A stretch of DNA of 64,000 nt from Nitrospinota bacterium (GCA_013349585.1 DUZG01000001.1:3499-67498); one strand, 5' to 3'. Numbered from the stretch's first letter, positions 13,201 to 43,915 are shown. Numbers and translations: made by a program. The notes: a model not told the origin generated them from the letters alone.

Positions 13201-14856
13201 CTATTTTCTAAGCTCGTGAATTTTTCCGGCAGACTTTCCCTTGCCTGCAACAGGCTTTGGGCTTGCATCGAGAATTTTCTTATCCACGTTATCCTCATAT
13301 TCTTTAAAGTTTTCAATAAACTGGTTAGCCAGTTCATTGGCTTTCTCGTCATACGCTTCCGGATTTTTCCAGGTATTTCTGGGAAACAGGTATTCTTTAG
13401 GTACATCTTTAACAACCAGAGGGATTTGTATCCCGAACACCGGATCGGTTTCGGTTTCAACATTGTCCAGTTGACCTTCGAGAATAGCCTTGATCATAGC
13501 GCGGGTGTATTTAATTTCGATTCTTTTCCCTACCCCGTATGCTCCTCCCGTCCAACCTGTGTTGACGAGCCAGCAGGAGACTTTATGCTTGTCAATTCTT
13601 TCACCAAGCATATCGGCATAAACAGAAGGATGCAATGACATGAAGGGAGCGCCAAAACAGGTACTAAAAATAGCCGTAGGTTCGCGGCTCATGCCCTTTT
13701 CGGTGCCCGCAACCTTTGCGGTGTAACCAGAAATGAAATGGTACATGGCTTGTTCGGGTGTCAGCTTTGAAACCGGAGGCATGACACCATAAGCATCGCA
13801 GGTGAGCATGATTACATTATTAGGATGACCACCCATACCTTCGAGTACCGCGTTGTTAATGTGTGTGATGGGGTAGCTGGCACGCGTGTTTTCAGTCAGG
13901 CTGGCATCGTCCAAATCCAGTCGCCGTGCATCTTTGCTCAGAACCACGTTTTCAAGCAAGGTACCGAATTTACGTGTGCATTCAAAAATTTCCGGCTCAG
14001 ATTTTTGAGAGAGGCGGATTACTTTGGCATAACAACCGCCTTCAAAATTAAAAACACCGCGATCGCTCCACCCGTGCTCATCGTCTCCTATCAGTTTCCT
14101 TTTTGGGTCGGCGGACAAAGTGGTTTTGCCAGTTCCGGAAAGACCAAAAAATATCGCAGAATCGCCTTTATCGCCAATATTTGCTGAGCAATGCATGGAT
14201 AAAACGGACTGCTTCTGTGGCAACAGGTAATTTAAAATGGAGAAAACGGATTTCTTGATTTCACCCGCGTAGCTGGTGCCTCCGATAAGAACCAACTGCC
14301 TGCCAAAGTCAACAATGACAAATACCTCTGAATTGGTTCCATCGATAGCTGGCACAGCTTTGAAGTCTGGCACGTGCATGATGGTGAATGCGGGGTCGTG
14401 GTTTTCCAGCTTTGCCATATCGCGTATCTGGATAAACATATTTCGCGCAAAAAGACTGTGCCATGCATGTTCGGTTATAACCCGGATATGGGTCTGGTGT
14501 TTGGGGTCGCAACCAGCGCAACAATCCTGAACATAGACTTCCTTACCTTGCAAATAGGCAAGAATGCGAGAATAGAGGGCTTCAAATTGTTCTACGGAAA
14601 AGGGGCGGTTTACTTTCCCCCACCAGATATTTTCCTGGCTGGAAGGCTCCTTTACGATAAACTTGTCGTTAGGTGCTCTACCCGTATGCTCACCTGTGGT
14701 TACGCAAACAGGGCCAAGATGCGACAATTCGCCTTCTTTATTGGCTATGATGTGTTCGTAAAGTTGTGGAGTGGATAAATTCCAGTTGATTTTTTTTAAG
14801 TTTTTGAGGCCGTGAGTTTCCAAACCTACTTTATGCTTTAAAACGTTTTGCGGCAT
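13201..14856 (-). CDS. pckA: Phosphoenolpyruvate carboxykinase (ATP)
   Basis: Motifs: GLSGTGKTTLS (kinase-1a), GDDEHGW, FNFEGGCYAK, NTGWTGG. I prefer ATG 14856, preceded by AAGGAA, over the TTG at 14862. Confidence 0.9.
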   Translation of the reverse strand: MPQNVLKHKVGLETHGLKNLKKINWNLSTPQLYEHIIANKEGELSHLGPVCVTTGEHTGRAPNDKFIVKEPSSQENIWWGKVNRPFSVEQFEALYSRILAYLQGKEVYVQDCCAGCDPKHQTHIRVITEHAWHSLFARNMFIQIRDMAKLENHDPAFTIMHVPDFKAVPAIDGTNSEVFVIVDFGRQLVLIGGTSYAGEIKKSVFSILNYLLPQKQSVLSMHCSANIGDKGDSAIFFGLSGTGKTTLSADPKRKLIGDDEHGWSDRGVFNFEGGCYAKVIRLSQKSEPEIFECTRKFGTLLENVVLSKDARRLDLDDASLTENTRASYPITHINNAVLEGMGGHPNNVIMLTCDAYGVMPPVSKLTPEQAMYHFISGYTAKVAGTEKGMSREPTAIFSTCFGAPFMSLHPSVYADMLGERIDKHKVSCWLVNTGWTGGAYGVGKRIEIKYTRAMIKAILEGQLDNVETETDPVFGIQIPLVVKDVPKEYLFPRNTWKNPEAYDEKANELANQFIENFKEYEDNVDKKILDASPKPVAGKGKSAGKIHELRK

Positions 14857-15037
14857 GGACAAAATTCCTTTATGATGAGTCGGTGAGCGACCGTAAACCC
14901 TTGTTGGGGAACAGTTTCCCCTATTCTCGGAGCCTACTAATAAACCATAATTTATTTTAGCATATAAAATAAAAATGAAAATAGGTTTTTGGGGCTAAAA
15001 CTCTAATTCTTATCGGTTAAAAACAGGAACCCTTAAA

Positions 15038-15955
15038 ATGTTCAATTTTCTGAAAAAAAAGGCAAAAGAGCCGGTAATTAAGGTGTTGGCCCGAGAAAGT
15101 ACCCAGTATAACGACATTTATGTCATTCAAAATGAAGATTACCGGGAGCTTTGGTTTAAGGGCAATGGCGACTATTTTCTGCAAAGTCGAGTGAATATCG
15201 AGCAGCAAAAACAATTGGCATTGGTTTATTCCAATATGATGATGGCATCTTTGCTTTTCTGTCCCAAGCCACAAAGATTATTAATGGTCGGATTAGGGGG
15301 GGCAGCGGTTACTAATTTTCTCAGCCAACAGTTCCCGAATTTGCACATTGATGTTGTGGAAATTGACCCCAAAGTAATTGAGGTTTCTAAAAAGTATTTT
15401 TATCTGCGTGAATCTAATCGTTATCGGGTTTTTGAAGAAGACGGCAGAGTGTTTATTCAGAAACGAAAAGGGCAGGAACCGTATGACTGGATTATTCTCG
15501 ATGCATTCAAAAGCGGGTCTATTCCATATCATTTAAAGACCTATGAGTTTTATAAAGAGATCCGCGCTATTTTAAAACCCGATGGAATCGTGGGCTCGAA
15601 CTTATACGGCAAGGGAAATTCTTTAAAACCTCGAGATACAAAAACCTTCATGTCGGTTTTTCCAAATATTTATTGTTTTGAGGATGACGAACGCGTTGCA
15701 ACCGTATTAATCGCCAATGGTGGGGAGCGTTGGTCTGAAAAAAAAATAAACGAAAGGGCAGCAATTTCTAATAAAATGCCCGAACCGTTTTCGATGCAGG
15801 AGGTTGCGAAAACCTATCGACCAGGAAAGTTTTTCAAAGAATCTGTAGCGAGGTTTGACGACCACTTTTCAGAGAAGGGTTTTATGCATGACGTGGGGAA
15901 AGAGAACCGATCAAGTGTTAAGCCCAGACGGTATCCGATAAAAAATATTCACTGA
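15038..15955 (+). CDS. Spermidine-synthase-fold (aminopropyltransferase-like) methyltransferase-family protein
   Basis: Motifs: LLMVGLGGAAVTNFL, VVEIDPKVIEVSKKYF, DGRVFI, DWIILDAF ... PYHLKTYEFY ... LKPDGI. Confidence 0.65.
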   Translation: MFNFLKKKAKEPVIKVLARESTQYNDIYVIQNEDYRELWFKGNGDYFLQSRVNIEQQKQLALVYSNMMMASLLFCPKPQRLLMVGLGGAAVTNFLSQQFPNLHIDVVEIDPKVIEVSKKYFYLRESNRYRVFEEDGRVFIQKRKGQEPYDWIILDAFKSGSIPYHLKTYEFYKEIRAILKPDGIVGSNLYGKGNSLKPRDTKTFMSVFPNIYCFEDDERVATVLIANGGERWSEKKINERAAISNKMPEPFSMQEVAKTYRPGKFFKESVARFDDHFSEKGFMHDVGKENRSSVKPRRYPIKNIH

Positions 15956-15973
15956 AAAACGAGAGTGTGGTTT

Positions 15974-18900
15974 TTAAGAGGGAAGATTGAAAACTTGTAT
16001 TTTTCTGCCATCAAAGTTTGATACAGCCAACCGACCGTTGTGAATAGAAAGCCCCGCTGTTTTGCCAAGTCCTCCGGTTCTGTTTCCTTGCTTACGATAG
16101 GTATCAACAACTTCGAGGTCGTTGTTCAAATGGATGATCTGGTTGTTCCAAAAATCGGAACCAAATATTCCATGTTCAGGGTCGCAGGCAAGAAAATAAA
16201 TATCATCGAAACCCAGGCCTTCTTGTTGTACCTGGTTAATCAATTTTCCATCGGCATCGAAACGTTTCAATAAGAATTCTGAGCGATCACCTACAATGAT
16301 TCCCCCATCTTCTAGGCAAAAGACTCCGCAGGGTGCCTTCAGGTTTTCTGATTGCTCGACAGAGAGGGGAGTTGCTTTCCCATTCGAGTCGAAGATTGCG
16401 ATACGGTTGTTGTCGGGATCGGCGATATGAATTTTGTCTTGAGAGTCTATTGAAAGCGAAAAGACATGACCAAGAACACCCTCCTCGAATTGAAGGATGA
16501 AGTTTCCTTTCACATCAAATTTTTTAACCACTCCATTTCCTTCGTCAATGACATAAATATTGTCGTGACTATCGGTAGCTATGTTGATCGGATATTTGAA
16601 AGCCCCTGGATTGTTTCCCCATGTCCCAAAATGAAATCTGTATTTTCCCTCGGATGAATAGCAATGAATGCGATGGTTTTCATAGTCGGCTACCAAAAGG
16701 TCTCCTTTGCTATTATGGACAAGGCCTTGAGGGTTTAAAGGCAATCCAATTTCTGAGCCAACTTTACTAATAGAAAAAATTTGCTTTAACTGCGTCTCTG
16801 GCGCAGATGCATTTGCTTCTGTAAAATTTAGAATCAGATTGAGCAAATTTTTTGATCGCATGCTTCTCTTAAGTTTCAGCTCTAATCGATTTATATTTGC
16901 CTGGAGTTGGGTAATATTAGCATCCACTTTTATGGATGCATCGATGTCGGATATATCGTGAGCGGATTCAAACTGTTTTTGCTGCAACCTCAAAGCGGCC
17001 ATTTCAAAAAAATTTGATTTTCTCTCGCGGGAAATTTCTAAGGTGTCGTTGTCTAGTTTTTTTGTGTAGATTGCAAGTTCATCGAACAATTGCGCATTAT
17101 CTTGAGGTTGATTTAAAACCTGAGCTAATGCTGCCCCTGCAATAAGTCGATGCAGGTTGAGATTTTCGTTGATATCGAGCCCTTTAATCATCCTACGTAT
17201 CAGATTCAACTGGAATTCAAAAACGGCGATATTGTTGTTTATGCCAATGGGGGTTGTTTTGTCTTCTGTTCCTACCTGTCTTTGTTGTACGTCCAAATCT
17301 CTTCTTTGTCGCTCCATATCATCCAACTGATCCAATAACTCCACGGATTTTTCTTCGAAAACAGATTGTGTTTTCAGGGCGGCGAGACATTGTGCGACCA
17401 GTTCGCTTTTCTGGTTTGCAAGGGAAGCTGAATTATATTTATTCGGGCCCCATAGCAATATCCCGTTTTCAAATCTAATTTCAGCGGATTGTGACTGCAG
17501 GACTTTGGCTGTTTGTTCTATATCCAGATTTTCGGAATCAAAAGCGACTGGTGCAAAATTGTCGATACTGGGTTCTGTAACAGAACTGTTTTTATTTTCC
17601 CAGTGAGGCATGACTGAATCCAGAGTTTCCAGAAATTGCGGCTCTAAAAAATCTAGTGTTTGCCAATGTTCATGAAAGCGGATAATTATGCGGGTCGCGT
17701 TCTCGGAGAAAGTGGAACTTGAGGTCAGGCTGCGAAGAAGTTTTCTGGCTTTTTCATTGTCGGTTGCCTGACGAGCTAGAACTTTCAAAACTTGAAAATG
17801 GGTTCGCATTTGAAATTGCAAATGCAAGAGAAGGTCCATGATTCTGTCGCTATAATAATTCTTTATAAGAAAGGAGGGGAGTTGGTCACTTCCGACATCT
17901 CCTAAAATTTGCACCATGGACTCTTCACATTTTTCTTTTTTATCAAAGTATTCATTGATGATGTCTACCGAAAAATTCCACTGGCGATCCAGCAGGCTCG
18001 TGATAGTTTCCATCTGTGTTTCATTGATTTCACTTTCAATCAGGTAGTAAATGAAACTGTAAAATTGTTGTGTCATTTTTCGAAAGGAATAAAAAGTGTT
18101 GCGGGTCTGTCGAAAGTATTCCCTGTCTTCCTGCTCGTATTTGTAAAGGTCCTTGTTGAATTCGCGAAGTCCTTGCGGGTCACTTTGGATCAATTTTTGT
18201 TCCTGCATCTGAAGCTCATTGAGTTTTTGCGCGGCCTCTTGCCAGAGCTGAAAAGCGGTTGTCATGCTTTTTCTTGATTCATTGAGTTGGTTTTCGATCA
18301 ATGGAATAGCGAGATCAATACTTGATCCTGTAATTTTTTTTCCTTCAAAAGCCAGCCGGCCAAGTTGAAGAGGCGCCTCTGAATTTTTGCCTGTAGGGTT
18401 TTTGCTGAGCAGGTCTAATGTTTGCTCCAGAGTTGCTAACGATTTGGGGTCGTTTTCATTTTTTGCCTGTACGAGAGAATAATAATAAATGTGTTCTGGG
18501 TTCAGGGGTTCGCTCGTTGCTAACTTTTCTGCCAGAGTATTTTCTGTGCCTGTCGGAATTTGATACTTCAGTATTTTGGTGTCAAATGTTGAACCGATAA
18601 ATAAATTCCCTGCAGAGTCTACCCGTGTCAGGCAGGGCGCTTCCAGCGGTGTTTCTTCGTGTTCGATCGCGTTCAGATATTGACCGAAGGCAGTGAATAT
18701 CTGGATCCGGTTGTTGTTCAGGTCAGCGATATAAAGTAAATCATTGGCGGCGATCGCAACACAAAGTGGGTATTGAAATTGTCCCGGCTCATCCCCTTGT
18801 TCCCCAAAAGTTAATATTTCTTGCCATTTTTTATCAAATTTTCGAATACGATGATTGCCGCTGTCTGTAACGAAATAATTTTCATGACTGTCGGTGGCGA

Positions 18901-19453
18901 TGGAGGTGGGAAACTCGAATAGTGGTGGCGCCAATAGATTAAAAGGAGTTTCATAATTACTCGCCAGTTCCTCTTCCAGAACTGTCCCTCTTTGCCCGAC
19001 CCACCCCAGTGATTTACCATGACCATCGAAGAATTGAATTCGGTGATTGTATCTTTCTACAACAATCAGAGTTCCCGATGAGTCGATGAGGATGTCGTAG
19101 GGCTCGTTCAACTCGCCTTTACCATCACCACATGAGCCAAAAGATAGAAGCGGTTTGCCCTGTGAGTCGAATTTTTGTATTCGGTGATTCCAACTGTCGG
19201 CGACAAAAATATTTCCCTCTTTATCTACTGCGATGCCTTTTGGGTATTGAAGCTGGCCTTGTTCTTTGCCTTTTTCGCCAAAGCTGGTTATTAGCTTGAA
19301 TTGCGGATCGTAAATCTGAATTCGGTGATTGAAATCGTCTGCTAATAGAATATTACCATCATGAGTGAAGCATAATCCTGATGGCGGAGACAATTCTTCG
19401 TCTTCTTTAGTTCTGAAGGAAGCATCGAATGTTACGGGAAAAAGGGAAGTCAT
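15974..19453 (-). CDS. Large protein with two NHL-repeat beta-propellers separated by a ~580-aa helical region; no signal peptide
   Basis: The N-terminal blades carry NHRIQIYD, NHRIQKFD, NHRIQFFD, NHRIRKFD and NNRIQIFT. The C-terminal blades carry NHRIHCYS, NGVVKKFD, NNRIAIFD, LLKRFD, NNQIIHLN and GRKIQVFN. The middle is Q/E/L-rich with no family motif I recognise. The start is set at M15 (ATG 19453). Confidence 0.8.
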   Translation of the reverse strand: MTSLFPVTFDASFRTKEDEELSPPSGLCFTHDGNILLADDFNHRIQIYDPQFKLITSFGEKGKEQGQLQYPKGIAVDKEGNIFVADSWNHRIQKFDSQGKPLLSFGSCGDGKGELNEPYDILIDSSGTLIVVERYNHRIQFFDGHGKSLGWVGQRGTVLEEELASNYETPFNLLAPPLFEFPTSIATDSHENYFVTDSGNHRIRKFDKKWQEILTFGEQGDEPGQFQYPLCVAIAANDLLYIADLNNNRIQIFTAFGQYLNAIEHEETPLEAPCLTRVDSAGNLFIGSTFDTKILKYQIPTGTENTLAEKLATSEPLNPEHIYYYSLVQAKNENDPKSLATLEQTLDLLSKNPTGKNSEAPLQLGRLAFEGKKITGSSIDLAIPLIENQLNESRKSMTTAFQLWQEAAQKLNELQMQEQKLIQSDPQGLREFNKDLYKYEQEDREYFRQTRNTFYSFRKMTQQFYSFIYYLIESEINETQMETITSLLDRQWNFSVDIINEYFDKKEKCEESMVQILGDVGSDQLPSFLIKNYYSDRIMDLLLHLQFQMRTHFQVLKVLARQATDNEKARKLLRSLTSSSTFSENATRIIIRFHEHWQTLDFLEPQFLETLDSVMPHWENKNSSVTEPSIDNFAPVAFDSENLDIEQTAKVLQSQSAEIRFENGILLWGPNKYNSASLANQKSELVAQCLAALKTQSVFEEKSVELLDQLDDMERQRRDLDVQQRQVGTEDKTTPIGINNNIAVFEFQLNLIRRMIKGLDINENLNLHRLIAGAALAQVLNQPQDNAQLFDELAIYTKKLDNDTLEISRERKSNFFEMAALRLQQKQFESAHDISDIDASIKVDANITQLQANINRLELKLKRSMRSKNLLNLILNFTEANASAPETQLKQIFSISKVGSEIGLPLNPQGLVHNSKGDLLVADYENHRIHCYSSEGKYRFHFGTWGNNPGAFKYPINIATDSHDNIYVIDEGNGVVKKFDVKGNFILQFEEGVLGHVFSLSIDSQDKIHIADPDNNRIAIFDSNGKATPLSVEQSENLKAPCGVFCLEDGGIIVGDRSEFLLKRFDADGKLINQVQQEGLGFDDIYFLACDPEHGIFGSDFWNNQIIHLNNDLEVVDTYRKQGNRTGGLGKTAGLSIHNGRLAVSNFDGRKIQVFNLPS

Positions 19454-19577
19454 AGTTGCCTTTAGATGATACGGGGGGTAGTTGATTAAGAGCACTCAGC
19501 CTGACCAGTCAGGCCGCATTTAATCACAAAAACAAGGACATTACAAATGACCTGTCGGTGGTACTGATTGCAGAGAA

Positions 19578-19925
19578 TTATTTGGGTTTCTGCGCCACAC
19601 CAGTATTATTTTCGTTATATTTAATTGTCCATTCATTGGAAGAGTCTATCTCTTTCTGCCAGATTTTTCATGTGTTCTGGCTCATCATACATTCGGCACC
19701 TTGAATCAGGTTCCAATGATCGAAACAATAGAGATGTCCCTTCTCCGAATTATTAACGGCGTTTCCTAAAATGATATAACTTTTTCCATGCCAGGAGCCG
19801 ACTTCAATAATCGTCCTTGGATTCTCCAGAAGTTAAATCATAGAGAAGTCGCGCATGTTCTTCAGGCGTATAGGGAGATGCAATATGCTGCGCCTGGTTC
19901 CAGATAGCGTTAAATATTATGTCGG
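19578..19925 (-). pseudogene. Relic of a class I SAM-dependent methyltransferase (Methyltransf_24-like), frameshifted and lacking a start
   Basis: The minus strand reads ...PYTPEEHARLLYDL in one frame. It then shifts to LLENPRTIIEVGSWHGKSYIILGNAVNNSEKGHLYCFDHW in another, and a further in-frame stop follows. No ORF of 60 aa or more is called here. Confidence 0.5.
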
Positions 19926-19988
19926 ACCTTTTTTTTCCTGAGTAGGGGGGAGCTCAGGGTTTCTTTGTGGCTCGGGGAACTGTTTTTC

Positions 19989-21503
19989 TTAAATAGATTT
20001 ATTGTTTCTTTTCGCGAATAAGAATAATTGGTAGTCCAGCGGGAACCCAAATAATTTGTATTTCCATCTGAATTTTGCGATTTTAGCAAAGATGTTGTAG
20101 GCCCATACGAAGAATAGTTTTTTGATTGGACTTTCTATTCTTCCTTTTGCCCAAATTATGGTGTCGGAATCGAGGAACATAAATATATAGCTGGATATCA
20201 TCGAAACCAATTGCGCTTGTTTGGGGGTGACCCAAGGTGTTTGTTTGTCATAAAGTTTCATATGAGCCCAGCCTTCTAGTTTCTTGGGTTCCTGAAAGCC
20301 AAGTTCTACCGCAGTATCGTATAACGGGGTGCCGGGGTATGGCATGTAAATAAACATCTGCCCTCGGTTGCGGCTATCATAAGAAAGAAACTTATCGAGC
20401 ATTTCGATCGTGGCATCTATCTGATTGTTTGTTTTTTGGGTTAGCTCTTGGTGGGTATGGTTCAGCATGGGTATTCCCACAAGAGTAGAAAAGATAACTT
20501 TGACTCCGTAGTCGCGGCATTTTTCAGCGAACTTATAATTGTCTTCGACATCCATGTCTTTATCGATGGCATCCAAAGATTCTTGGTCTCCGGATTCAGC
20601 GCCACATAAGATGCTGTAAGTGCGCGACTCCCTTAAAAGTTCCCAAAGTTCATCGTCAGCTTCGGCTAGTTGTTTGGCCCGGCCATCTAGATTGCCGAGT
20701 CTTAGGGTCAAGCCCCGGTCGATAATTCCTTTCAGAATAGCTTTGGCTCTTTTGACATTCACAAAAAACAGACTGTCGTATAAATTGACCCCATTGACGT
20801 TGTATTTATTCTGAAGTTTTTCCAAGTCATCGAGAACCGCTTCGGGATTCAACCCGACCCAGCTTCTATTGTTTACGGTAACTTCACTACAGAATGAACA
20901 CCGATAAGGGCATCCATAGCTGGAAACGTAGTTGATGGTCCGGGTCCCGAATTCGGTGACCATGACGCATTTTTCAATATCAACGAGATGGTAGGGAAGC
21001 GGCGGCCAGTCATCTATAGATTCTAGACTTCTGTCTGGATTGGTAAATACCTCGCCGTTTTCTTTCCAGATCACTCCGGGGATGTCTTTATATTTCTCAC
21101 CGGCTTCAATTCTTTTTACAACATCATGGAGTGCCCGGGCACCCTGTCCTTTAATTACAATATCTATAAATGGACTTTCCAGTACCTGATATGGATGAAC
21201 TGATGGGTGCCAGCCGCCCCAAATTATTTTTATATCTTTATTCGTCTCTTTGGCAATCTGACTTGCCTTAAGTCCGCCCTGGATTTGCAGACCCGTCATA
21301 GCGGATATTCCTAAAACCAGGCTGTCTTTGGCCGATTCTCGTATTTCTTGATAAGGATCGGGGTACAAGTTTTCAGCGATGATCTTTATGGGATAACCTT
21401 CTTTATCTAGAAATCGGGATACGCAAATAAGAGAAAGGGGGAGGTCTACCGGCTTGTAATACGGATCTGGTCTTGGATTGAATAAAAGAATTGAGCTTTT
21501 CAT
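19989..21503 (-). CDS. B12-binding-domain radical SAM protein (class B)
   Basis: The N-terminus has a Rossmann-like B12-binding region (LVLGISAMTG...IIWGGWHPS). The radical-SAM cluster motif is SSYGCPYRCSFCSE. Confidence 0.8.
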   Translation of the reverse strand: MKSSILLFNPRPDPYYKPVDLPLSLICVSRFLDKEGYPIKIIAENLYPDPYQEIRESAKDSLVLGISAMTGLQIQGGLKASQIAKETNKDIKIIWGGWHPSVHPYQVLESPFIDIVIKGQGARALHDVVKRIEAGEKYKDIPGVIWKENGEVFTNPDRSLESIDDWPPLPYHLVDIEKCVMVTEFGTRTINYVSSYGCPYRCSFCSEVTVNNRSWVGLNPEAVLDDLEKLQNKYNVNGVNLYDSLFFVNVKRAKAILKGIIDRGLTLRLGNLDGRAKQLAEADDELWELLRESRTYSILCGAESGDQESLDAIDKDMDVEDNYKFAEKCRDYGVKVIFSTLVGIPMLNHTHQELTQKTNNQIDATIEMLDKFLSYDSRNRGQMFIYMPYPGTPLYDTAVELGFQEPKKLEGWAHMKLYDKQTPWVTPKQAQLVSMISSYIFMFLDSDTIIWAKGRIESPIKKLFFVWAYNIFAKIAKFRWKYKLFGFPLDYQLFLFAKRNNKSI

Positions 21504-21632: not shown

Positions 21633-24600
21633 TTAATCGGTGATTATATGTTTTTCGATTTCAGTGTCTGTCCTGATTCGAGTTCTTTGAATCTGGAATC
21701 GTCGAAAAAGCATTTTCGGAAGCAACTTTAAGGCATCCCATTTACTTTTTAACAAAACCTGACCTTGCCCACGGTAGGTGAAATATTTAATGTCATTGAA
21801 CTGGTGCTTCCAGATGGAATAGAGATATTTGAAATACATCTTTAAAGAATAGTTTTTGATGAAAACCCAGATGTCGTTGCGTTTGCATAAATAAACATAG
21901 CGATCACTGTACAAGCCTACTGTTGCGGTGCCGATGTGGTAGACCTTTGATTTTGGCAAATAGACAGCTTGAAACCCATGCAACTGGCTACGCATGTTTA
22001 GATCAACATCTTCCGCGAAAATAAAAAAGTCTTCATCAAACAATCCGATTTGTTTAAAAAGTTCTTTTCGGTAAATTCCTGCTCCGGCGCAGGCTCCGAA
22101 AACATAATCCTCCTGGTCATACTGGCCGTTGTCTTTATCGCCTTGACCGCGTCCGCCTCCTGCGGACCATGAATGAAACAAGTCGCCGGTGTTATAGAAG
22201 ACTTCTCTGTTATCAAGGAACATCATTTTTGTGGTTCCCATGCCACATTCAGGATGCCGCTCCATGCCTTCATAAAGCTCGCTTAGCCAATCGGGCACGA
22301 CTTCTATATCGTTGTTGAGCAATACAACATATTCCGCGTTGGATGCTTTGATTCCTTCATTACAGGCAATGGCGAACCCCATATTGTGTGGAAGTTTCAA
22401 CAGCTGCACCCAGGGATATTTTTCTTCTATCATTTCGCGGGAACCGTCCATAGAGCCGTTGTCAACCACAATGACTTCAAAATTTTCGAAGTGTAATTGA
22501 GCCAGAGAGTCCAGACACATGCCAACGAATCGCATTCCGTTCCAGTTGGGAACAATGACACTCACTAACGGATTTTCCGACTGGGGCTGTTTTGATGTTT
22601 CTGCTATGTTTTTTGTGGAGTTACTTGCTGTTTCGCCCAACATTGCTTGAGCTCCTTGATGAGAAGGGTTAAGTTTTATACATTTTTTTAATAGCTCTTG
22701 CCTCTTTTTCAAGGGTGCCGAGCGGGCTATTCTGAAACAGGCATTGGCCTGAATATGTGGGTAGTGTTCGGAGGAATCTACGATTTCCGCAAACTGGGAA
22801 GAGGCTGCAAATAAGTCACCTATGTTTTCAAGGGCAGAGGCTGTAGCATATCTTAAAATCCCGTTTTCAGGATTATTTTTCAAATATAGGTTTAGAGTTT
22901 CATGTTCAGGCCTTGTTTGAGAGTCCAGCTCCGCCAGAGCTTGTACGATTTTAGTGTGCAGCCATTCCTGATCTTTTTTAGGGTGAATATCGCGAGCTTC
23001 CTCGAATAAATTTTTCAACTCATCCTGATTTTTTAATTTGACGAGGCATTCGATAGAAAATTTCCAGCAGTCATGGCGGTCTGGGAACTGTCTCCTTATA
23101 TGATCAAACTCTCCCCAAGCTTCCTTATATTTTCCATTATATTTAAAGAGTAGCCCATTCAAAAAATCATCTTCAACATGAAAGTCAAAGCGTTTGATTT
23201 CTTCTTGAATCAAAGGAATGGCTTCGTCAAATTTTTTAAACTGTATTTTTATATTGGCAAGATGAATTCTCAAATGTTGCCATTCGGGAGATAGTTCAAC
23301 GGCTTTTTCAAAAGCCGTTTCTGCTTGATGGGGAAGGTCGAGTGCCAAATAGATTTCGCCTAAATATACATTCCCTTCCCTATCTTCAGGGTTCAGACGT
23401 AAGAGATTGCGGCATTCCTTGAATGCGGTGGTTAGTTTTCCTCTCTCTAAATCTGCGCGGTTCAATGCTGGGGCATGCCATTCTCCCTGCGTAAGTTCTT
23501 CCATTTGTTCCATTTTTTTCTGCCAGGGAAATGAAAGGGGATCAGTGGTTAGGGATTCGGAACTTTCCAGACGGTAAACAGGAAATCTTGCCAGAACAAC
23601 TTTTAAAAGTGTGTATTTTAAACCAGTTATGTCTTCTAACTGCTGTATATCAAGGTCGGGAAAGGTTTTGATTATGTACTTGGGTTTATGTTTTATGACT
23701 CCACCTATCATGCTGTCGTAAAACCCTTCCAAGTCTTGCGTATCCCAGGGGCCTATTGTGTAGTGGAGAAAATTGTCAGCTGCGGGGCAATCTGTTAAGT
23801 GATAAAGCTGAGAGAAGGTTCCCCACACGAAAATCCGTTCGCCAGATTCTCCTCGCATTCTCATTAGTCGCTTTAGACTTTTTCCCAACCGAGGAATATA
23901 CAAGTATTGATCGTATTTTTCATATTGCACCAAGGTCTCGGGCTGAGTTGGTTTTGAATAATAAAGAAATAGGGATTTAATATTCCAGACGAGAATGGCG
24001 AAGAAAACTGTCGCAACCACTATTGCCAGTCCAGGTTCTTGTTGCATTACCCAATGCATTCCCAAACCACAGCCCAACGAAAGCAACGCGAACCAGGGGA
24101 GGTAATGGTATCGGGAAAAGGCTCGCTGAAAAACGATGTTACTTAAGGTAATGAGGGTGAAAGTTGCGAGCCAAAGGTTTTCTGATTTAGAGAGGTAGAA
24201 TGCTAAGGCAGCAATTCCCGCTATCCAGATAGGCAGGGCTTGCTTCATCAATAAATAAATTTCATAGCAAATGCTGAAATGCAGAGATTTTGTTTTTGTT
24301 ATTCGCATTGTGGTCGCCATGCGGGTTTTCATTTGCTTTATGGACTGGGCATCCCAGAACCCGAGTGCCCACTCTATTGAATTGGAAAGGATGGTTATGC
24401 TGGATACCGTAATGGCAAAAATAACTGCGGAGGTTCCGCCATAAGATATCCACACAGCCGGAGCCAGAATGCCAGCATAGATGACCATGGTGCATTTACA
24501 TATGACGGCAAAGCCAAAACAAAGTCCGGCATAAAAAACCGCGCCATTTAAAAGAAAAGCCAACCCGGCAAAGATAAAAGGAATATAGAATTGTTCGAAG

Positions 24601-25007
24601 TTGAAAGAGCCTGCGGTCAGATCGGGTGAAGTTCCATAAAATGAGTAGAGCAGTCCACCTGTAAATGCCGCCCATTGATTTTGTGTTACAACCAAAACGA
24701 CCCAGTAAATAGAAAGGCAGGCTGCCACATGAAAAAGGGTCTGCAAATGTCGGATTCGTAAATGCCCTTTTTTGGAAGAGGCAAAAACCTTATCGAATAG
24801 CATCATCTTCCACATCGGAACTCCTATGACTTGCAAATCATCTTTCCAGAGAAAACCTCTGTTCGCGAAATGGGCACGGTAGGTGTAAATAGCAAAATCG
24901 TCGTCCACAGGAAATTTGAGAAAAGGCAAGCGGCAAAGAAAGGCCGAGATGATAAGTATTAGAAGATGAAATGTAGTCAAGAGTTCCATAGACATTTGTG
25001 GGTTCAC
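21633..25007 (-). CDS. Three-module fusion: polytopic GT-C-like membrane domain, TPR repeats and a family 2 glycosyltransferase domain
   Basis: About aa 1-345 hold many TM helices, with an FPVDDDFAIYTY acidic loop motif after TM1. About aa 510-790 are TPR-like repeats (e.g. GNVYLGEIYLALDLPHQAETAFEKAVELSPEW). From about aa 805 to the end is a GT2 domain: VSVIVPNWNG, VVDNGSMDGS, VVLLNNDIEV, FIFAEDVDLNMR. Confidence 0.75.
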   Translation of the reverse strand: MNPQMSMELLTTFHLLILIISAFLCRLPFLKFPVDDDFAIYTYRAHFANRGFLWKDDLQVIGVPMWKMMLFDKVFASSKKGHLRIRHLQTLFHVAACLSIYWVVLVVTQNQWAAFTGGLLYSFYGTSPDLTAGSFNFEQFYIPFIFAGLAFLLNGAVFYAGLCFGFAVICKCTMVIYAGILAPAVWISYGGTSAVIFAITVSSITILSNSIEWALGFWDAQSIKQMKTRMATTMRITKTKSLHFSICYEIYLLMKQALPIWIAGIAALAFYLSKSENLWLATFTLITLSNIVFQRAFSRYHYLPWFALLSLGCGLGMHWVMQQEPGLAIVVATVFFAILVWNIKSLFLYYSKPTQPETLVQYEKYDQYLYIPRLGKSLKRLMRMRGESGERIFVWGTFSQLYHLTDCPAADNFLHYTIGPWDTQDLEGFYDSMIGGVIKHKPKYIIKTFPDLDIQQLEDITGLKYTLLKVVLARFPVYRLESSESLTTDPLSFPWQKKMEQMEELTQGEWHAPALNRADLERGKLTTAFKECRNLLRLNPEDREGNVYLGEIYLALDLPHQAETAFEKAVELSPEWQHLRIHLANIKIQFKKFDEAIPLIQEEIKRFDFHVEDDFLNGLLFKYNGKYKEAWGEFDHIRRQFPDRHDCWKFSIECLVKLKNQDELKNLFEEARDIHPKKDQEWLHTKIVQALAELDSQTRPEHETLNLYLKNNPENGILRYATASALENIGDLFAASSQFAEIVDSSEHYPHIQANACFRIARSAPLKKRQELLKKCIKLNPSHQGAQAMLGETASNSTKNIAETSKQPQSENPLVSVIVPNWNGMRFVGMCLDSLAQLHFENFEVIVVDNGSMDGSREMIEEKYPWVQLLKLPHNMGFAIACNEGIKASNAEYVVLLNNDIEVVPDWLSELYEGMERHPECGMGTTKMMFLDNREVFYNTGDLFHSWSAGGGRGQGDKDNGQYDQEDYVFGACAGAGIYRKELFKQIGLFDEDFFIFAEDVDLNMRSQLHGFQAVYLPKSKVYHIGTATVGLYSDRYVYLCKRNDIWVFIKNYSLKMYFKYLYSIWKHQFNDIKYFTYRGQGQVLLKSKWDALKLLPKMLFRRFQIQRTRIRTDTEIEKHIITD

Positions 25008-41264: not shown

Positions 41265-41534
41265 TCAAACAGGATCTTTCAATTCTAAAGCATTAAAAAT
41301 CACTTTAAAGAGGTATCAAAATTTTTAAACCAAAATTGTATCCTAAGTTTAAAATTTATGATTTGAGATAAGGCGAATATTTAAATTTTTGGAGCTACAG
41401 GTAATAAAACGGTATTTGTTTGAATAAACTTGACCCTTAATCGAAACCTATTGTATAGGAAATATAAGCTATTGTAAATAATAGGGTTATAGCTCGAATG
41501 GAAGCCCGGCGTGGATTTTTATAAATTGAGTACA

Positions 41535-41788
41535 GGTTTTGCAAATTTGCAAGACGAAATGCTTCTCGTACACGGGCTGTCATTACCTTCATAATGGCAT
41601 TAAGACTGTCCTAAGTGAACTGAAGCACTCTTGAGTTAAAAGCGGACCTTACTTCTACTCAAAAATTTAACCGTTGTAGAGCGGGAATTGTCATCGATCA
41701 GCTCCATTTTCCAAAAGAAATCAGACTTTCCTAGAATTCGGACGAGAATCCTTTTTCTATAGTCATTTTCCGTGATGGCTACCTTTCT
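41535..41788 (-). pseudogene. Truncated, frameshifted paralogue of the adjacent cNMP-binding gene
   Basis: Minus-strand VAITENDYRKRILVRILGKSDFFWKMELIDDNSRSTTVKFLSRSKV aligns with VGIIENTLEGQKLIKRLNENEIFGEMGLIHGRPRSATARALEDSVV of the intact copy. After a stop and a frame change, LNAIMKVMTARVREAFRLANLQN aligns with LPILKVLTSRLRETMKGTSQN. The N-terminal ~30 codons and a start codon are missing. Confidence 0.55.
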
Positions 41789-41795
41789 AATTTAC

Positions 41796-42161
41796 TCACC
41801 ACCTGTTGAACCTATTTTGTGAGGTACCCTTCATTGTTTCTCGCAAACGGCTGGTTAAAACTTTTAATATTGGCAGTAAGACTTCCGGTTTTTCTTTGGA
41901 AAGCTTGTCAAAATTAATTTGAGTCATTCTAAATACAACTGAATCTTCAAGCGCTCGGGCTGTTGCGGAACGAGGCCTCCCATGGATCAAACCCATTTCG
42001 CCAAAAATTTCATTTTCATTTAACCGCTTAATTAGCTTCTGACCTTCAAGAGTGTTTTCTATTATCCCAACGGATCCGGAAATAATGATAAATGCGCAAT
42101 CACTGGGGTTACCCTGACTAAACACGGTTTCGCCTTTTGTTAAATTTCTCCTGTGATTCAT
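41796..42161 (-). CDS. Stand-alone cyclic-nucleotide-binding domain protein
   Basis: Motif FGEMGLIHGRPRSATARA, with the beta-roll context GETVFSQGNPSDCAFIIISGSV. No DNA-binding or other effector domain is present. I prefer ATG 42161. Confidence 0.75.
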   Translation of the reverse strand: MNHRRNLTKGETVFSQGNPSDCAFIIISGSVGIIENTLEGQKLIKRLNENEIFGEMGLIHGRPRSATARALEDSVVFRMTQINFDKLSKEKPEVLLPILKVLTSRLRETMKGTSQNRFNRW

Positions 42162-42179
42162 CTTAGTCACCAATAAATT

Positions 42180-42400
42180 GTTTTAATTTTGTACTTATTA
42201 GTGATACAAGCAAAATTTAAGCCAATTATAATAAAAAAGTTAAAATAACAGCGTAATACTGTTCAAAAAGCGTATTCATAGATAAATATTAAATCTTAAT
42301 TTGTATTAATATATTTAAATGTAATTAAATAGTAAAAATATAATTTATATGTATTAATTTTTATAAATTTTTATTTTTGTGAGAAGCAGATTAGATTTGT
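42180..42400. other. Extremely AT-rich intergenic tract
   Basis: By eye G+C is under ~20% (e.g. taaatcttaatttgtattaatatatttaaatgtaattaaatagtaaaaatataatttatatgtattaatttttataaattttta). It lies upstream of the cNMP-binding gene. Confidence 0.8.
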
Positions 42401-42560
42401 TTGATTCTAGTGATAATCAGATTGAGTCTGCTAAAGTTATTTTTATTAAAATAGAGGAAAATGTGAGTTAAGGAGGGATACTATTGATTTTTTAATTCCT
42501 CTTTTAACGGTCTGATAGATTCAATTTTACCTTTGAGGAGGATATTTCGAAACTCACTGT

Positions 42561-43392
42561 TTATTTTTTAGAGGAGTTCCGACGAAAGAAGGGGGTTTGT
42601 TTAACCTTAATACGGTTTTTTGATCTCACATTGTGCTGAGAGTGAAAGATACGATTAAACGATTTTATATGATTCAGAGCTTCTTCAGCGTTAGGGGTTC
42701 TTTTTATAAGTAGGCGGTCTTCAGTAGATGCAAAGCCGTTTTCTAGCAAAAGAGAGTCCAGTAAATCGAGACAACCATCGAAATAATCATCCTCCTTATG
42801 GTCGAGCAAGGCAATGGATCTGGCATGCACTTTCCCGTTTGGAATAAGGTCAGGTTTTTAAAGCCTTCGTCTATAGTGCCCAATCCAGCTGGAATAATTA
42901 CTGTGGAGTGCGACTCTTTTATAAATACCAGTTTTGAGTAAAAAAATATTTTAACTACATGAGGTTAGCAGAATCGTAAATAAAAGAGTTTGTCGCTTGT
43001 TCGTGAGGTAGTTTTATATTCAATCCGAAACTATTGTCGACAAAGGCTCCACGGTTCGCGGCTTTCATAATTCCTCCACCTGCGCCGGAGTTAATCATGA
43101 AGCCATTTTCAACGAGGCTTTTCGCCAACTCGTAATTAAGGTCTGATTCAACAACTCTGACCGAGCTAAATAAGGCTACTTCCCGTATTTCTCGATAAGG
43201 TTTGAAAATTTTAAATGAAGATCTCAGTTCCTTAAGGGCTTGATTAATGAGTTTATAGTCCCCTCGATCATTATGTTCTATCCCCCCCATTAGCAAAAGA
43301 GTGATTAGAATTTCTTCGAATAGAGACTCGTCACCACAATTTTTGGGAAGCTTACGGATAAATGCCGGGATATCCTGGGGAGATGGGGTCAT
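42561..43392 (-). pseudogene. LOG-family (TIGR00730, cytokinin riboside 5'-monophosphate phosphoribohydrolase-like) gene with two frameshifts
   Basis: Fragment 1 (42955-43392) has INSGAGGGIMKAANRGA and LPHEQATN. The middle piece is in another frame: KIFFYSKLVFIKESHSTVIIPAGLGTIDEGFKNLTLFQTGK (PGGxGTxDE / QT.K motifs). Fragment 3 (42561-42830) carries the C-terminal part in a third frame. Confidence 0.7.
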
Positions 43393-43509
43393 TTTTATTA
43401 AAATTCATTATATGAGCAAATATTTTCAAAGTCTCAATTAAGTTGCTACAATCACTCTAGAAAACTTGTCCCGCACATATGGGGGCTTAATTTGTAAAGG
43501 ATTTCAATT

Positions 43510-43707
43510 ATGAATGATAAAGTATTAATCATTTCCATATTAAGCCTGCTGGGAATCGGCTTTGTTGCTGTACTTTTTGTTGCCGTGCCGTGGCTTATAA
43601 ATTACGCATTGCCCGACTGGGAAAATACTTTATTGGATAGTGGGATCGTAATGGTTGCCATAGTTCTTTTTGTATATGGCTTCTATATGAATACTCGAAT
43701 GCATTAG
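43510..43707 (+). CDS. Small two-TM membrane protein, paralogue 1 (65 aa)
   Basis: AAAGGA RBS 8 nt upstream. Two hydrophobic helices separated by PW...PDW. Confidence 0.55.
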   Translation: MNDKVLIISILSLLGIGFVAVLFVAVPWLINYALPDWENTLLDSGIVMVAIVLFVYGFYMNTRMH

Positions 43708-43716
43708 AGTATCCAT

Positions 43717-43914
43717 ATGGATGAAAAAAAACTGATAATAATTCTGACAAGCCTACTGATATTGGGCTTTCTATCCCTGTTTATCATAATAATTCCTTGG
43801 GCCAATTGGAGCCGTATTCCAGATTGGAAAGCAATAGCAACTGACAACCTCTTAATGAGTCTCATCGCCGCAGCCATTGGTTACGGGATCTATATAGGTT
43901 CCAAGACTATGTAG
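43717..43914 (+). CDS. Small two-TM membrane protein, paralogue 2 (65 aa)
   Basis: Same length as the neighbour, with 19 of 65 identical residues by my alignment. Shared landmarks are K4, LII, SLL, GF, PW, PDW, D, YG.Y. The spacer between the two genes is 9 nt. Confidence 0.55.
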   Translation: MDEKKLIIILTSLLILGFLSLFIIIIPWANWSRIPDWKAIATDNLLMSLIAAAIGYGIYIGSKTM

Positions 43915-43915
43915 C

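Follow-up and report, generated by a model that had tools for sequence, protein, structure and literature searches.

The gene described here encodes a protein of 1159 residues that may act as a rigid, soluble cytoplasmic, non-catalytic two-site scaffold, specific to Nitrospinota and functionally coupled, as a docking hub or as the modified protein, to a cassette of glycosyltransferase (GT2), radical-SAM and methyltransferase genes; we put the probability of this reading at roughly 0.4. Nitrite oxidation in the ocean is carried out mainly by Nitrospinota, a phylum whose lineage-specific proteins are for the most part uncharacterised. The protein is a 130-kDa, phylum-wide one with a confidently predicted structure, in which a helical domain lies between two NHL propellers (NHL-helical-NHL). 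Should it be the hub or the target of the cassette, a new type of modification system, cytoplasmic and centred on a protein, would be defined, and the TPR-fused radical-SAM and GT2 enzymes would gain a function as a class. Even without such a role, the protein would add a new domain family and serve as a clean phylogenetic marker of Nitrospinota.

The window is the whole stretch of 64,000 nucleotides from a Nitrospinota bacterium (GCA_013349585.1 DUZG01000001.1:3499-67498), and the features discussed are collected in Table 1. The product of the NHL gene was 100% identical to P0001, 'hypothetical protein HPP54_00085, Nitrospinae bacterium'. Since full-length homologues reach down to 33-36% identity in about 55 species, the gene is not a product of chance. 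Its sole longer reading starts at a GTG at 19495 and adds 14 hydrophilic residues, and an in-frame stop lies 45 nt upstream of the ATG. Since this stop is present and the homologues begin with the same MT(S/T), no upstream start could add a signal peptide, and an alternative start of that kind was ruled out. No TM segment was found in the 1159-aa protein (the top 19-residue Kyte-Doolittle mean was 1.05), nor was a Tat motif, a lipobox, an LPXTG or a PEP-CTERM signal, and the chain stops directly after the last propeller strand. A signal-peptide-like hydrophobic core was likewise absent, and the N-terminus hydrophilic, in 29 of 30 aligned family members; the exception, P0100, has the N-terminus MVELVVCFFSTL, which is probably an over-long start call. 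To judge from its sequence, the protein thus looks cytoplasmic; the sequence-only reading had proposed a cytoplasmic protein with neither signal peptide nor TM segment, and both the sequence scan and the in-frame stop agree with it.

Table 1. Features of the NHL-helical-NHL locus, in positions of the window
Feature	Coordinates	Strand	Extent	Basis and remarks
Spermidine-synthase-like class I transferase	15038..15955	+	305 aa	Pfam Spermine_synth; convergent, 18 bp from the NHL-gene stop
NHL-helical-NHL gene	15974..19453	-	1159 aa, 131.7 kDa, pI 5.0	ORF and translation; ATG start
C-terminal six-bladed NHL propeller	15986..16786	-	residues 890-1156	Pfam NHL and DUF5128; AF2
Orphan helical domain	16820..18544	-	residues 304-878	AF2
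N-terminal six-bladed NHL propeller	18560..19432	-	residues 8-298	Pfam NHL, phmmer, Foldseek; AF2
Family-specific insertion, blades 3/4 of N-propeller	18905..18997	-	residues 153-183	Helix 158-166 (AF2)
Spacer upstream of NHL gene	19454..19988	-	535 bp	Broken Methyltransf_24 remnant (tblastx); accessory-gene slot, nearly emptied
B12-binding radical SAM enzyme	19989..21503	-	504 aa	Pfam B12-binding and Radical_SAM; co-directional, upstream of NHL gene
TPR and GT2 glycosyltransferase	21633..25007	-	1124 aa	Pfam TPR about 495-800, Glycos_transf_2 816-987; co-directional

The full chain was folded by AlphaFold2 (AF2) with a pLDDT of 89.6 and a pTM of 0.88. Since the pTM was 0.88 both for the whole chain and for the centre folded alone (pLDDT 90.8), the model implies a defined arrangement between the domains and not beads on a string. 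Two NHL propellers bridged by a helical region had been claimed from the sequence; AF2 placed about 575 helical residues between the two propellers, as claimed. Seven stretches, distributed over both ends, matched Pfam NHL (PF01436), for a score of 162.5 bits (cut-off 20). The six blades proposed for each end were recovered as six four-stranded blades in the AF2 secondary structure (pLDDT about 90), with strands 8-13 and 890-895 occupying the closing-strand position of the last blade in the respective propeller. However, the motif N[HN]RI[QR]xF[DT], said to recur five to six times per end, occurred in only four exact copies, all within the N-propeller; the looser signature N[HNG]x[IV] gave five copies at the N-end and four at the C-end, and the other blades were degenerate for the NHL motif. 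The two propellers are homologous to each other (hhalign E 9e-40, 29% identity). The insertion between blades 3 and 4 of the N-propeller aligned largely to gaps when the two propeller profiles were compared, the C-propeller carrying an unrelated insertion of its own. In alignment A1, the invariant columns of the N-propeller insertion were G153, R155, T157, E160, L163, T169, F179, E180, P182 and T183.

The centre was nearly all helical in the AF2 model. Four short helices (304-369) and four helices of 39-49 residues (376-563) are followed by short helices with a conserved loop, FxPVxFDSExLD (632-643); a beta-meander of three strands (659-674) then leads into four helices, each 45-52 residues long (675-878). 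Further conserved loops lie at 425-451 and 725-770. Descent of the two four-helix halves from an internal duplication was rejected (hhalign probability < 1%). The composition was rich in L (12.6%), E (8.5%) and Q (8.5%), and the first impression of a Q/E/L-rich centre that matches nothing familiar was confirmed on every search. Pfam and NCBIfam at E <= 1 returned only noise (DUF5500, DUF7036 and ClpS adaptor, E 0.004-0.1), the sequence profile search of the PDB only de novo coiled-coil peptides (E >= 0.08), and Foldseek against the PDB and BFVD a best E of 0.02 with TM <= 0.2. A profile search of 1.84 billion representatives recovered 58 proteins only, of which the full-length ones shared the architecture and the others were fragments. 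The centre is therefore a domain family private to the NHL-helical-NHL proteins, with no detectable fold match. It is predicted to form intramolecular long-helix bundles with a small beta-meander rather than a dimerising coiled coil.

As to distribution, the architecture was confined to Nitrospinota among the named members, which represent about 55 species-level genomes, and one NHL-helical-NHL gene was recovered per genome sampled. It was found mainly in MAGs named Nitrospinota, and three loci were labelled just 'uncultured bacterium'. The locus scan used the full-length alignment, the central-domain alignment being too divergent. Matches in other phyla were mostly single-propeller, mostly secreted NHL proteins. 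The nearest sampled bacterial NHL proteins outside the family mostly carried signal peptides or TM anchors, in line with the sequence-only reading that such proteins are usually exported; its further statement that they usually have one propeller held for most sampled relatives, but multi-propeller bacterial NHL proteins do exist. A search of the published literature found no paper linking Nitrospina with NHL repeats and none on this family.

The arrangement had been called free-standing, which does not hold for its genomic context. At 40-45 of the 55 loci the NHL gene closes a variable GT2/radical-SAM/methyltransferase cassette, and the convergent spermidine-synthase-like gene comes next. The cassette is co-directional and hypervariable, with GT2, B12-radical-SAM, radical-SAM and methyltransferase genes. 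Its conserved head is the TPR-GT2 gene: most of the 55 loci had a homologue upstream of the NHL gene, and in distant lineages TPR and GT2 are encoded by separate genes; the corresponding GT2/TPR/B12-radical-SAM cluster (c0) was present at 45 of 55 loci. The B12-binding radical SAM gene was present in only some close relatives. The gene immediately upstream of the NHL gene, mostly co-directional at the 55 full-length loci, was GT2/TPR/B12-radical-SAM in about 24, a radical-SAM gene of 490-550 aa, often with TPR, in 13, Methyltransf_24 in nine, another methyltransferase in four and a SPASM radical-SAM in one. The spermidine-synthase-like gene (125 bits to NCBIfam PRK04457, cut-off 304) was convergent with the NHL gene at 40 of 55 loci, and at most 700 bp away in 38. 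The flanking housekeeping genes were prfA, PEPCK, pdxA, ksgA and cysG/hemD. Synteny in Nitrospinaceae is largely inherited, so that the 55 loci amount to about six independent genomic contexts.

Strains with NHL proteins 88-90% identical to each other differed in which accessory genes they had, and therefore the accessory function is not essential to the NHL protein. In the window, the slot holds the remnant of a gene that is intact elsewhere (L005 9177-9881, 234 aa, Pfam Methyltransf_24), the window frames being interrupted by stops. Where outer synteny was lost, cassette-class genes were still near the NHL gene in most such lineages: a radical-SAM upstream (L043), a B12-radical-SAM immediately upstream (L026), or GT2 or radical-SAM genes downstream (L003, L057, L058); in L040, L044 and L041, zero, one or two accessory genes, respectively, sat precisely in the gap from a PhzF-like gene to the NHL gene. 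Against the association, one context (L030/L033) had just an FtsJ-like methyltransferase beside the NHL gene, and L040 had no accessory gene directly upstream. Rfam at gathering score and a tRNA search returned nothing in the whole window, the upstream gap included, and promoter-like sites in this gap were at chance frequency. A defence system was rejected, with no PADLOC-DB family at E <= 0.01. Radical-SAM and GT genes are possibly just abundant in Nitrospinota genomes, and the 5' slot may be a hot-spot for insertions that has no functional tie to the NHL gene.

TPR was fused to three cassette enzyme classes (GT2, B12-radical-SAM and radical-SAM), which suggests a common protein partner; in the 490-550-aa radical-SAM and the B12-radical-SAM/TPR fusions the repeats are C-terminal. 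In the scaffold reading, the two six-bladed propellers would be ligand-binding platforms, and the private long-helix domain would fix the geometry between them, a role close to the putative 'bivalent scaffold or receptor' of the sequence-only reading. The scaffold would be coupled to the enzymes encoded immediately 5' of it (GT2, B12- and SPASM/twitch-type radical-SAM, class I methyltransferases), and most likely the TPR modules of these enzymes would dock on the NHL protein as their common hub; alternatively, the NHL protein would be the target that they modify. A broader proposal, which we regard as unlikely, is that the protein forms the invariant core of an undescribed cytoplasmic system of Nitrospinota, in which a hub of new fold recruits strain-variable radical-SAM enzymes, glycosyltransferases and methyltransferases by TPR, or is decorated by them, as a single-chain bacterial counterpart of the dimeric TRIM-NHL pair.

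Taken by itself, the substrate alternative holds that TPR-tagged GT2, SPASM/twitch-type radical-SAM 'maturase'-like enzymes and methyltransferases add strain-variable glycosylation, methylation or cross-links to the NHL protein. The NHL gene closes co-directional cassettes whose content differs among close strains, as in glycosylation islands, and TPR-GT fusions of the kind seen in the cassette are typical of protein-directed transferases (OGT, FlmG). No NCBIfam model named any neighbouring enzyme, the B12-binding radical SAM included, at its cut-off, and the closest names for the 490-aa and 388-aa radical-SAM genes, W_rSAM_matur and rSAM_Geo_metal, are those of protein or metalloenzyme maturases, all far below cut-off. 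However, GT2 alone was upstream in L001 and L024, and no accessory gene was directly upstream in L040. Moreover, an acidic cytoplasmic propeller that is 62% conserved would be an odd target for strain-variable decoration, and no modification site or sequon could be identified. We consider this alternative doubtful.

It is also rather improbable that the neighbourhood is coincidental, with a housekeeping or structural protein specific to the phylum, such as a cytoskeletal or a protocoatomer-type coat-like one, that just happens to be encoded beside an insertion hot-spot. The housekeeping flanks and the unstable content of the slot would fit such a case, as would the top, non-significant Foldseek matches of the centre, which were alpha-solenoids (IFT-A, nucleoporins, Ski3, NatA). 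Like the protocoatomer and membrane-coat-like proteins (IFT-A, nucleoporins, MC proteins of PVC bacteria), the protein has a propeller followed by a large all-helical region. However, the solenoid matches were at noise level (E >= 0.02, TM about 0.1), the helices of 39-52 residues are bundle-like in contrast to short solenoid repeats, and a second propeller stands at the C-terminus. Furthermore, the same accessory families recur beside the NHL gene in several independent contexts.

TRIM proteins carry an N-terminal tripartite motif of RING, B-box and coiled coil, and their NHL domains are binding modules and not enzymes; TRIM-NHL proteins have one propeller per chain and reach a two-NHL arrangement by dimerising. 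NHL domains that bind RNA do so through a basic top face. The TRIM-NHL resemblance noted by the sequence-only reading was borne out by both sequence and fold. Among solved structures, Thin/TRIM32, TRIM71 and TRIM2/3 came closest to both propellers: phmmer against the PDB gave Thin/TRIM32 (6d69, E 3e-71) and TRIM71 (E 1e-63) for the N-propeller and TRIM71 (8j72, E 1e-33) for the C-propeller, and Foldseek gave TM 0.87-0.91 to TRIM-NHL domains at about 30% identity. Among the bacterial proteins encountered in this analysis, these propellers are the most like animal TRIM-NHL domains. The protein shares with Thin/TRIM32, TRIM71/LIN-41, TRIM2/3, Brat and Mei-P26 the six-bladed propellers of the same subtype, the combination of a helical region with NHL and an apparently intracellular location. 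In contrast, it is bacterial and restricted to a single phylum, has two propellers per chain, both acidic, and contains a 575-residue bundle domain with neither sequence nor detectable fold kinship to the TRIM coiled coil. Since no RING or B-box (Pfam, E <= 1) was found, nor a filamin domain, and the chain begins with the propeller, it is not a TRIM relative beyond its propellers.

These matches bear on a third alternative, an RNA-binding post-transcriptional regulator like Brat, LIN-41/TRIM71, Mei-P26 and NHL-2, which would recognise one short RNA motif per propeller, with the helices as a spacer between the two sites. TRIM71 and Brat NHL domains with RNA bound are among the closest structures (E 1e-63 to 1e-29; TM 0.82-0.89), and the apparent cytoplasmic location would suit this role. 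However, both propellers are acidic in bulk values, as distinct from surface electrostatics (net charge -18 and pI 4.8 for the N-propeller, net -10 for the C-propeller; family means 5.1 and 5.8). The likeness to TRIM may merely mirror the bias of the PDB to TRIM-NHL structures, and the best match, Thin/TRIM32, is reported to be an enzyme-binding NHL domain that binds the glycolytic enzymes aldolase and Pglym (PMC7105379). We regard RNA binding as very unlikely.

With secreted or periplasmic bacterial NHL proteins (PknD sensor domain 1rwi, ScyF, the LIC_12708 family) the protein shares the PF01436 propeller, and the ScyF model (NCBIfam NF035926, NHL and PEP-CTERM) matched at E 1e-74 with 251.8 bits, below its cut-off of 350. 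Unlike most sampled relatives, it has no signal peptide or anchor; it also lacks PEP-CTERM, and has a duplicated propeller and an orphan helical domain. E. coli YncE is periplasmic and has a signal peptide, which is lacking in this protein; the JGI name 'YncE' (COG3391) on family members is a generic COG name.

That one propeller is catalytic (peptidyl-alpha-hydroxyglycine lyase, SMP-30/gluconolactonase or Vgb lyase type), making the protein a biosynthetic enzyme of the cassette pathway, is hardly probable: there were weak Pfam matches to SGL (E 9e-12) and Phytase-like, to Vgb_lyase in relatives, and a Foldseek match to PAL (3fvz, E 6e-11), but the Pfam matches span generic blade segments only, Phytase-like and Vgb_lyase being below cut-off and SGL (45.5 bits against 26.3) covering residues 16-100 only. 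SGL/lactonase/PON-type propellers have a Glu/Asp/Asn/His metal-ligand cluster at the mouth of the central channel. In the N-propeller, the six predicted inner strands open with G26, G73, D120, T183/S184, L230/C231 and C274/L275, a modelled set unlike such ligands, with one acidic residue (D120) and no His/Asn/Glu cluster. The very high conservation of the N-propeller would suit an active site, yet each of its invariant histidines falls within the structural N-H-R signature of the repeat, which is common to non-catalytic TRIM-NHL domains.

The N-propeller is the most conserved part of the protein, with a mean family identity of 62-64% compared to 42-49% for the C-propeller and 25-37% for the helical parts; over the whole phylum, the values are about 62% for the N-propeller and 25-30% for the helices. 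As a scaffold, the protein may therefore bind through its N-propeller a partner that is invariant across the phylum, the C-propeller and the helical strut being freer to change. F41, W88 and R134/Y135 fill the variable places in the B-C loop motif and were invariant across the family, consistent with one conserved binding face, the 'top face' and the propeller-helix contacts being placed by secondary structure and motif register.

The NHL gene is a minus-strand ORF (see table) whose product was 100% identical to a 'hypothetical protein' from a Nitrospinae MAG. Its ATG is the real start, because the alignment of 30 homologues begins at this MT(S/T) too and the upstream frame is bounded. The sole possible extension, to a GTG at 19495, would add only 14 residues, which are hydrophilic, and is closed off by an in-frame stop; this excludes a signal peptide supplied from an alternative upstream start. 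The sequence-only reading had described a cytoplasmic protein without signal peptide or membrane segment, and the data agreed: the highest 19-residue hydropathy mean was 1.05, far short of a membrane helix, the N-termini were hydrophilic in 29 of the 30 aligned family members, and no Tat motif, lipobox, LPXTG or PEP-CTERM was found in the sequence. The chain ends directly after its last beta-strand. The exception among the 30, the homologous protein P0100, has a short hydrophobic N-terminal stretch, which seems to come from a start called too far upstream. The sequence-only observation of the protein was borne out except for its repeat count: the exact NHL motif, put at 5-6 copies per end, was found 4 times, all N-terminal, and a looser signature occurred 5 times at the N-end and 4 times at the C-end.

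The whole chain was modelled by AlphaFold2 on the 30-sequence family alignment (mean pLDDT 89.6, pTM 0.88), and two six-bladed propellers bridged by a helical region were predicted, as had been proposed. Strand 8-13 occupies the closing-strand position of N-propeller blade 6, and strand 890-895 the equivalent position in the C-propeller. The centre modelled by itself from 49 sequences gave a pLDDT of 90.8 and a pTM of 0.88; from these high pTM values, we infer that the protein may be compact, with its parts fixed relative to one another, and not a flexible rod. The extended loop in part 3 of the centre is strongly conserved.

Features of the NHL protein and of its associated cassette genes (L-numbers, homologous loci in other genomes; slot, gap between the TPR-GT2 and NHL genes)
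Feature	Position	Strand	Description	Basis
NHL gene	window 15974-19453	minus	ATG-initiated ORF, 1159 codons	
N-propeller	residues 8-298		six four-stranded blades	AlphaFold2 model
Centre	residues 304-878		almost wholly helical	AlphaFold2 model
Centre, part 1	residues 304-369		four short helices	AlphaFold2 model
Centre, part 2	residues 376-563		four helices, 39-49 residues each	AlphaFold2 model
Centre, part 3			short helices, loop FxPVxFDSExLD (632-643), three-stranded beta-meander (659-674)	AlphaFold2 model
Centre, part 4	residues 675-878		four further helices, 45-52 residues each	AlphaFold2 model
C-propeller	residues 890-1156		second six-bladed propeller	AlphaFold2 model
TPR-fusion examples	L038 6256-8064; L019 8295-9797; L063 8274-9800; L005 6528-8003; window 21633-25007			
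Slot content, phylum-wide			B12-radical-SAM genes, with or without TPR	
Slot content, phylum-wide			490-550-aa radical-SAM genes, often with TPR	
Slot content, phylum-wide			SPASM radical-SAM genes	
Slot content, phylum-wide			Methyltransf_24 and CmoB-like methyltransferases	
Slot content, phylum-wide			GT2 genes, with or without TPR	

Pfam NHL matched stretches at both ends (162.5 bits). The suggested likeness to TRIM-NHL proteins was confirmed, since the best PDB matches of both propellers were TRIM-NHL domains: Drosophila Thin/TRIM32 (E 3e-71), TRIM71 (1e-63), TRIM2/3 (about 1e-40) and Brat (1e-29) for the N-propeller, and TRIM71 (1e-33) and TRIM3 for the C-propeller. In Foldseek, the model superposed on these structures with a TM of 0.82-0.91 at 26-31% identity. 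By hhalign, the N- and C-propellers are homologues (E 9e-40, 29% identity), and their mutual similarity does not exceed their similarity to animal NHL domains. The tripartite motif, which defines TRIM proteins, was absent by Pfam; the protein shares TRIM-type NHL modules with them, yet is not a TRIM protein. It also scored below the ScyF cut-off and lacks the PEP-CTERM. 'YncE', the name that JGI gives it, is a non-specific COG label.

The centre was matched by neither Pfam nor NCBIfam. A profile built from 12 sequences (residues 325-900) found nothing among PDB sequences beyond designed coiled-coil peptides (E >= 0.08), and hhalign detected no internal repeat. When 1.84 billion representative proteins were searched with the profile by HMMER, only 58 were retrieved; every full-length one was NHL-centre-NHL, and the remainder were fragments. 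Because of these results, the centre, in which no motif had been recognised earlier, is taken as a domain private to this family. The architecture is real, well-defined and previously undescribed: the TRIM-like NHL modules are known, and their duplication around an orphan helical domain is new.

Scanning a single genome per species yielded 80 loci, 55 with a full-length NHL gene, and one copy was recovered per sampled genome. All named carriers belonged to Nitrospinota (Nitrospinaceae, Nitrospinales, Nitrospinia) and came from the sea or from groundwater. In other phyla, most matches were single-propeller NHL proteins, secreted or anchored, as the sequence-only reading held for bacteria at large, although some of them carry several propellers. 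Mean pairwise identity within the family was 64% for the N-propeller, 49% for the C-propeller and 27-37% for the helical parts, and the N-propeller was still 62% identical between the window protein and members 36-40% identical overall. Among the invariant residues were those of the structural N-H-R signatures and, directly before these, the blade-specific F41, W88, R134 and Y135; others lay in an insertion peculiar to the family (153-183, between blades 3 and 4) and in several loop motifs at long-helix ends in the centre. Deep-branching members (L057 4810-8577, L058 9785-13561, P0097/P0103/P0125-P0138) have an extra N-terminal extension of ~60-100 residues before the first propeller, which is helical-looking and not a signal peptide.

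This architecture, confined to Nitrospinota, is tied to a variable radical-SAM, GT2 and methyltransferase cassette. In the window, two co-directional genes lie upstream of the NHL gene across a 535-bp gap, one for a B12-binding radical-SAM enzyme and, beyond it, one for a 1124-aa TPR+GT2 protein; a convergent spermidine-synthase-like gene lies 18 bp 3'. The whole is framed by housekeeping genes, with prfA at one end and PEPCK, pdxA, ksgA and cysG/hemD at the other. The gap (19454-19988) is what remains, after decay, of a 234-aa Methyltransf_24 gene, the last of three slot genes intact in L005 (6528-9881; GT2-TPR of 491 aa, Methyltransf_24 of 361 aa and 234 aa; NHL protein 88% identical) and otherwise deleted in the window. 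The outer gene frame was kept down to 33% NHL-protein identity, and the convergent neighbour was present in 40 of the 55 loci. The slot differed even among strains with 88-90% identical NHL proteins, from nothing in L004 to three extra genes in L005, and in closely related Nitrospinaceae (L004-L063) it was hypervariable, with 0.1 kb to >6 kb and 0 to 5 genes. No slot gene product reached curated NCBIfam cut-offs; for the radical-SAM genes outside the B12 class, the closest named models, below cut-off, were protein or metalloenzyme maturases.

Where outer synteny was lost, most lineages still had cassette gene classes close to the NHL gene: a B12-radical-SAM gene immediately 5' (L026), a radical-SAM gene upstream with YfhO-like membrane proteins downstream (L043), or GT2 or radical-SAM genes 3' (L003, L057, L058). 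In a context unrelated to the main slot, accessory genes showed the same series: none, one or two of them (L040, L044 and L041, respectively) were inserted precisely where a PhzF-like gene adjoins the NHL gene. Contrary to the sequence-only reading, the protein does not stand free in its genomic setting. The association was seen in five of about six independent contexts and is suggestive; a hot-spot for insertions, or such genes being generally dense in these genomes, could produce the same picture.

NHL propellers of the TRIM-like subtype are binding modules. The NHL domain of Thin/TRIM32, the best structural match, is described as binding metabolic enzymes (PMC7105379). Since, in addition, no metal-ligand cluster of lactonase type was seen among the central-channel entry residues of the model and the N-propeller evolves very slowly, which is consistent with a conserved partner, the most economical reading would be a soluble, non-catalytic, two-site scaffold. 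TPR repeats bind proteins, and they are fused to three cassette enzyme classes (B12-radical-SAM, GT2 and a second radical-SAM family), which suggests that all three may have a protein partner in common. Because these classes are unrelated and the NHL protein is the sole invariant non-enzyme at the cassette, we tentatively favoured (confidence about 0.4) a role of the NHL protein as a hub onto which these enzymes would dock. The main rival, in which the NHL protein is instead the substrate of these enzymes, seems unlikely. A coincidental neighbourhood, for which a hot-spot or gene density could account, is somewhat less probable still, as the association recurs across contexts. An RNA-binding role, as for Brat or LIN-41, is improbable given that every domain is acidic (net charge of the N-propeller, -18), and a single catalytic propeller is equally so in view of the channel-entry residues.

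Several minor observations were made. The window stretch 41265-43915 (2.6 kb) has the lowest G+C (0.353 vs about 0.42) and no ORF longer than 145 aa; neither a tRNA nor an Rfam family was detected in it. In L043 (groundwater Nitrospinae), two convergent ~1000-aa proteins follow the NHL gene (13474-19565), and the one scanned matched YfhO, a GT-C-like membrane glycosyltransferase, weakly. One Nitrospinota MAG (L053 9833-13560) carries the NHL gene as two ORFs of 531 and 699 aa, the result of either misassembly or a frameshift that made it a pseudogene. The first 490 residues of the 1124-aa TPR-GT2 protein (23538-25007, minus strand) had no Pfam match at E <= 0.01; in L001, a distant relative, the TPR and GT2 parts are on separate genes.
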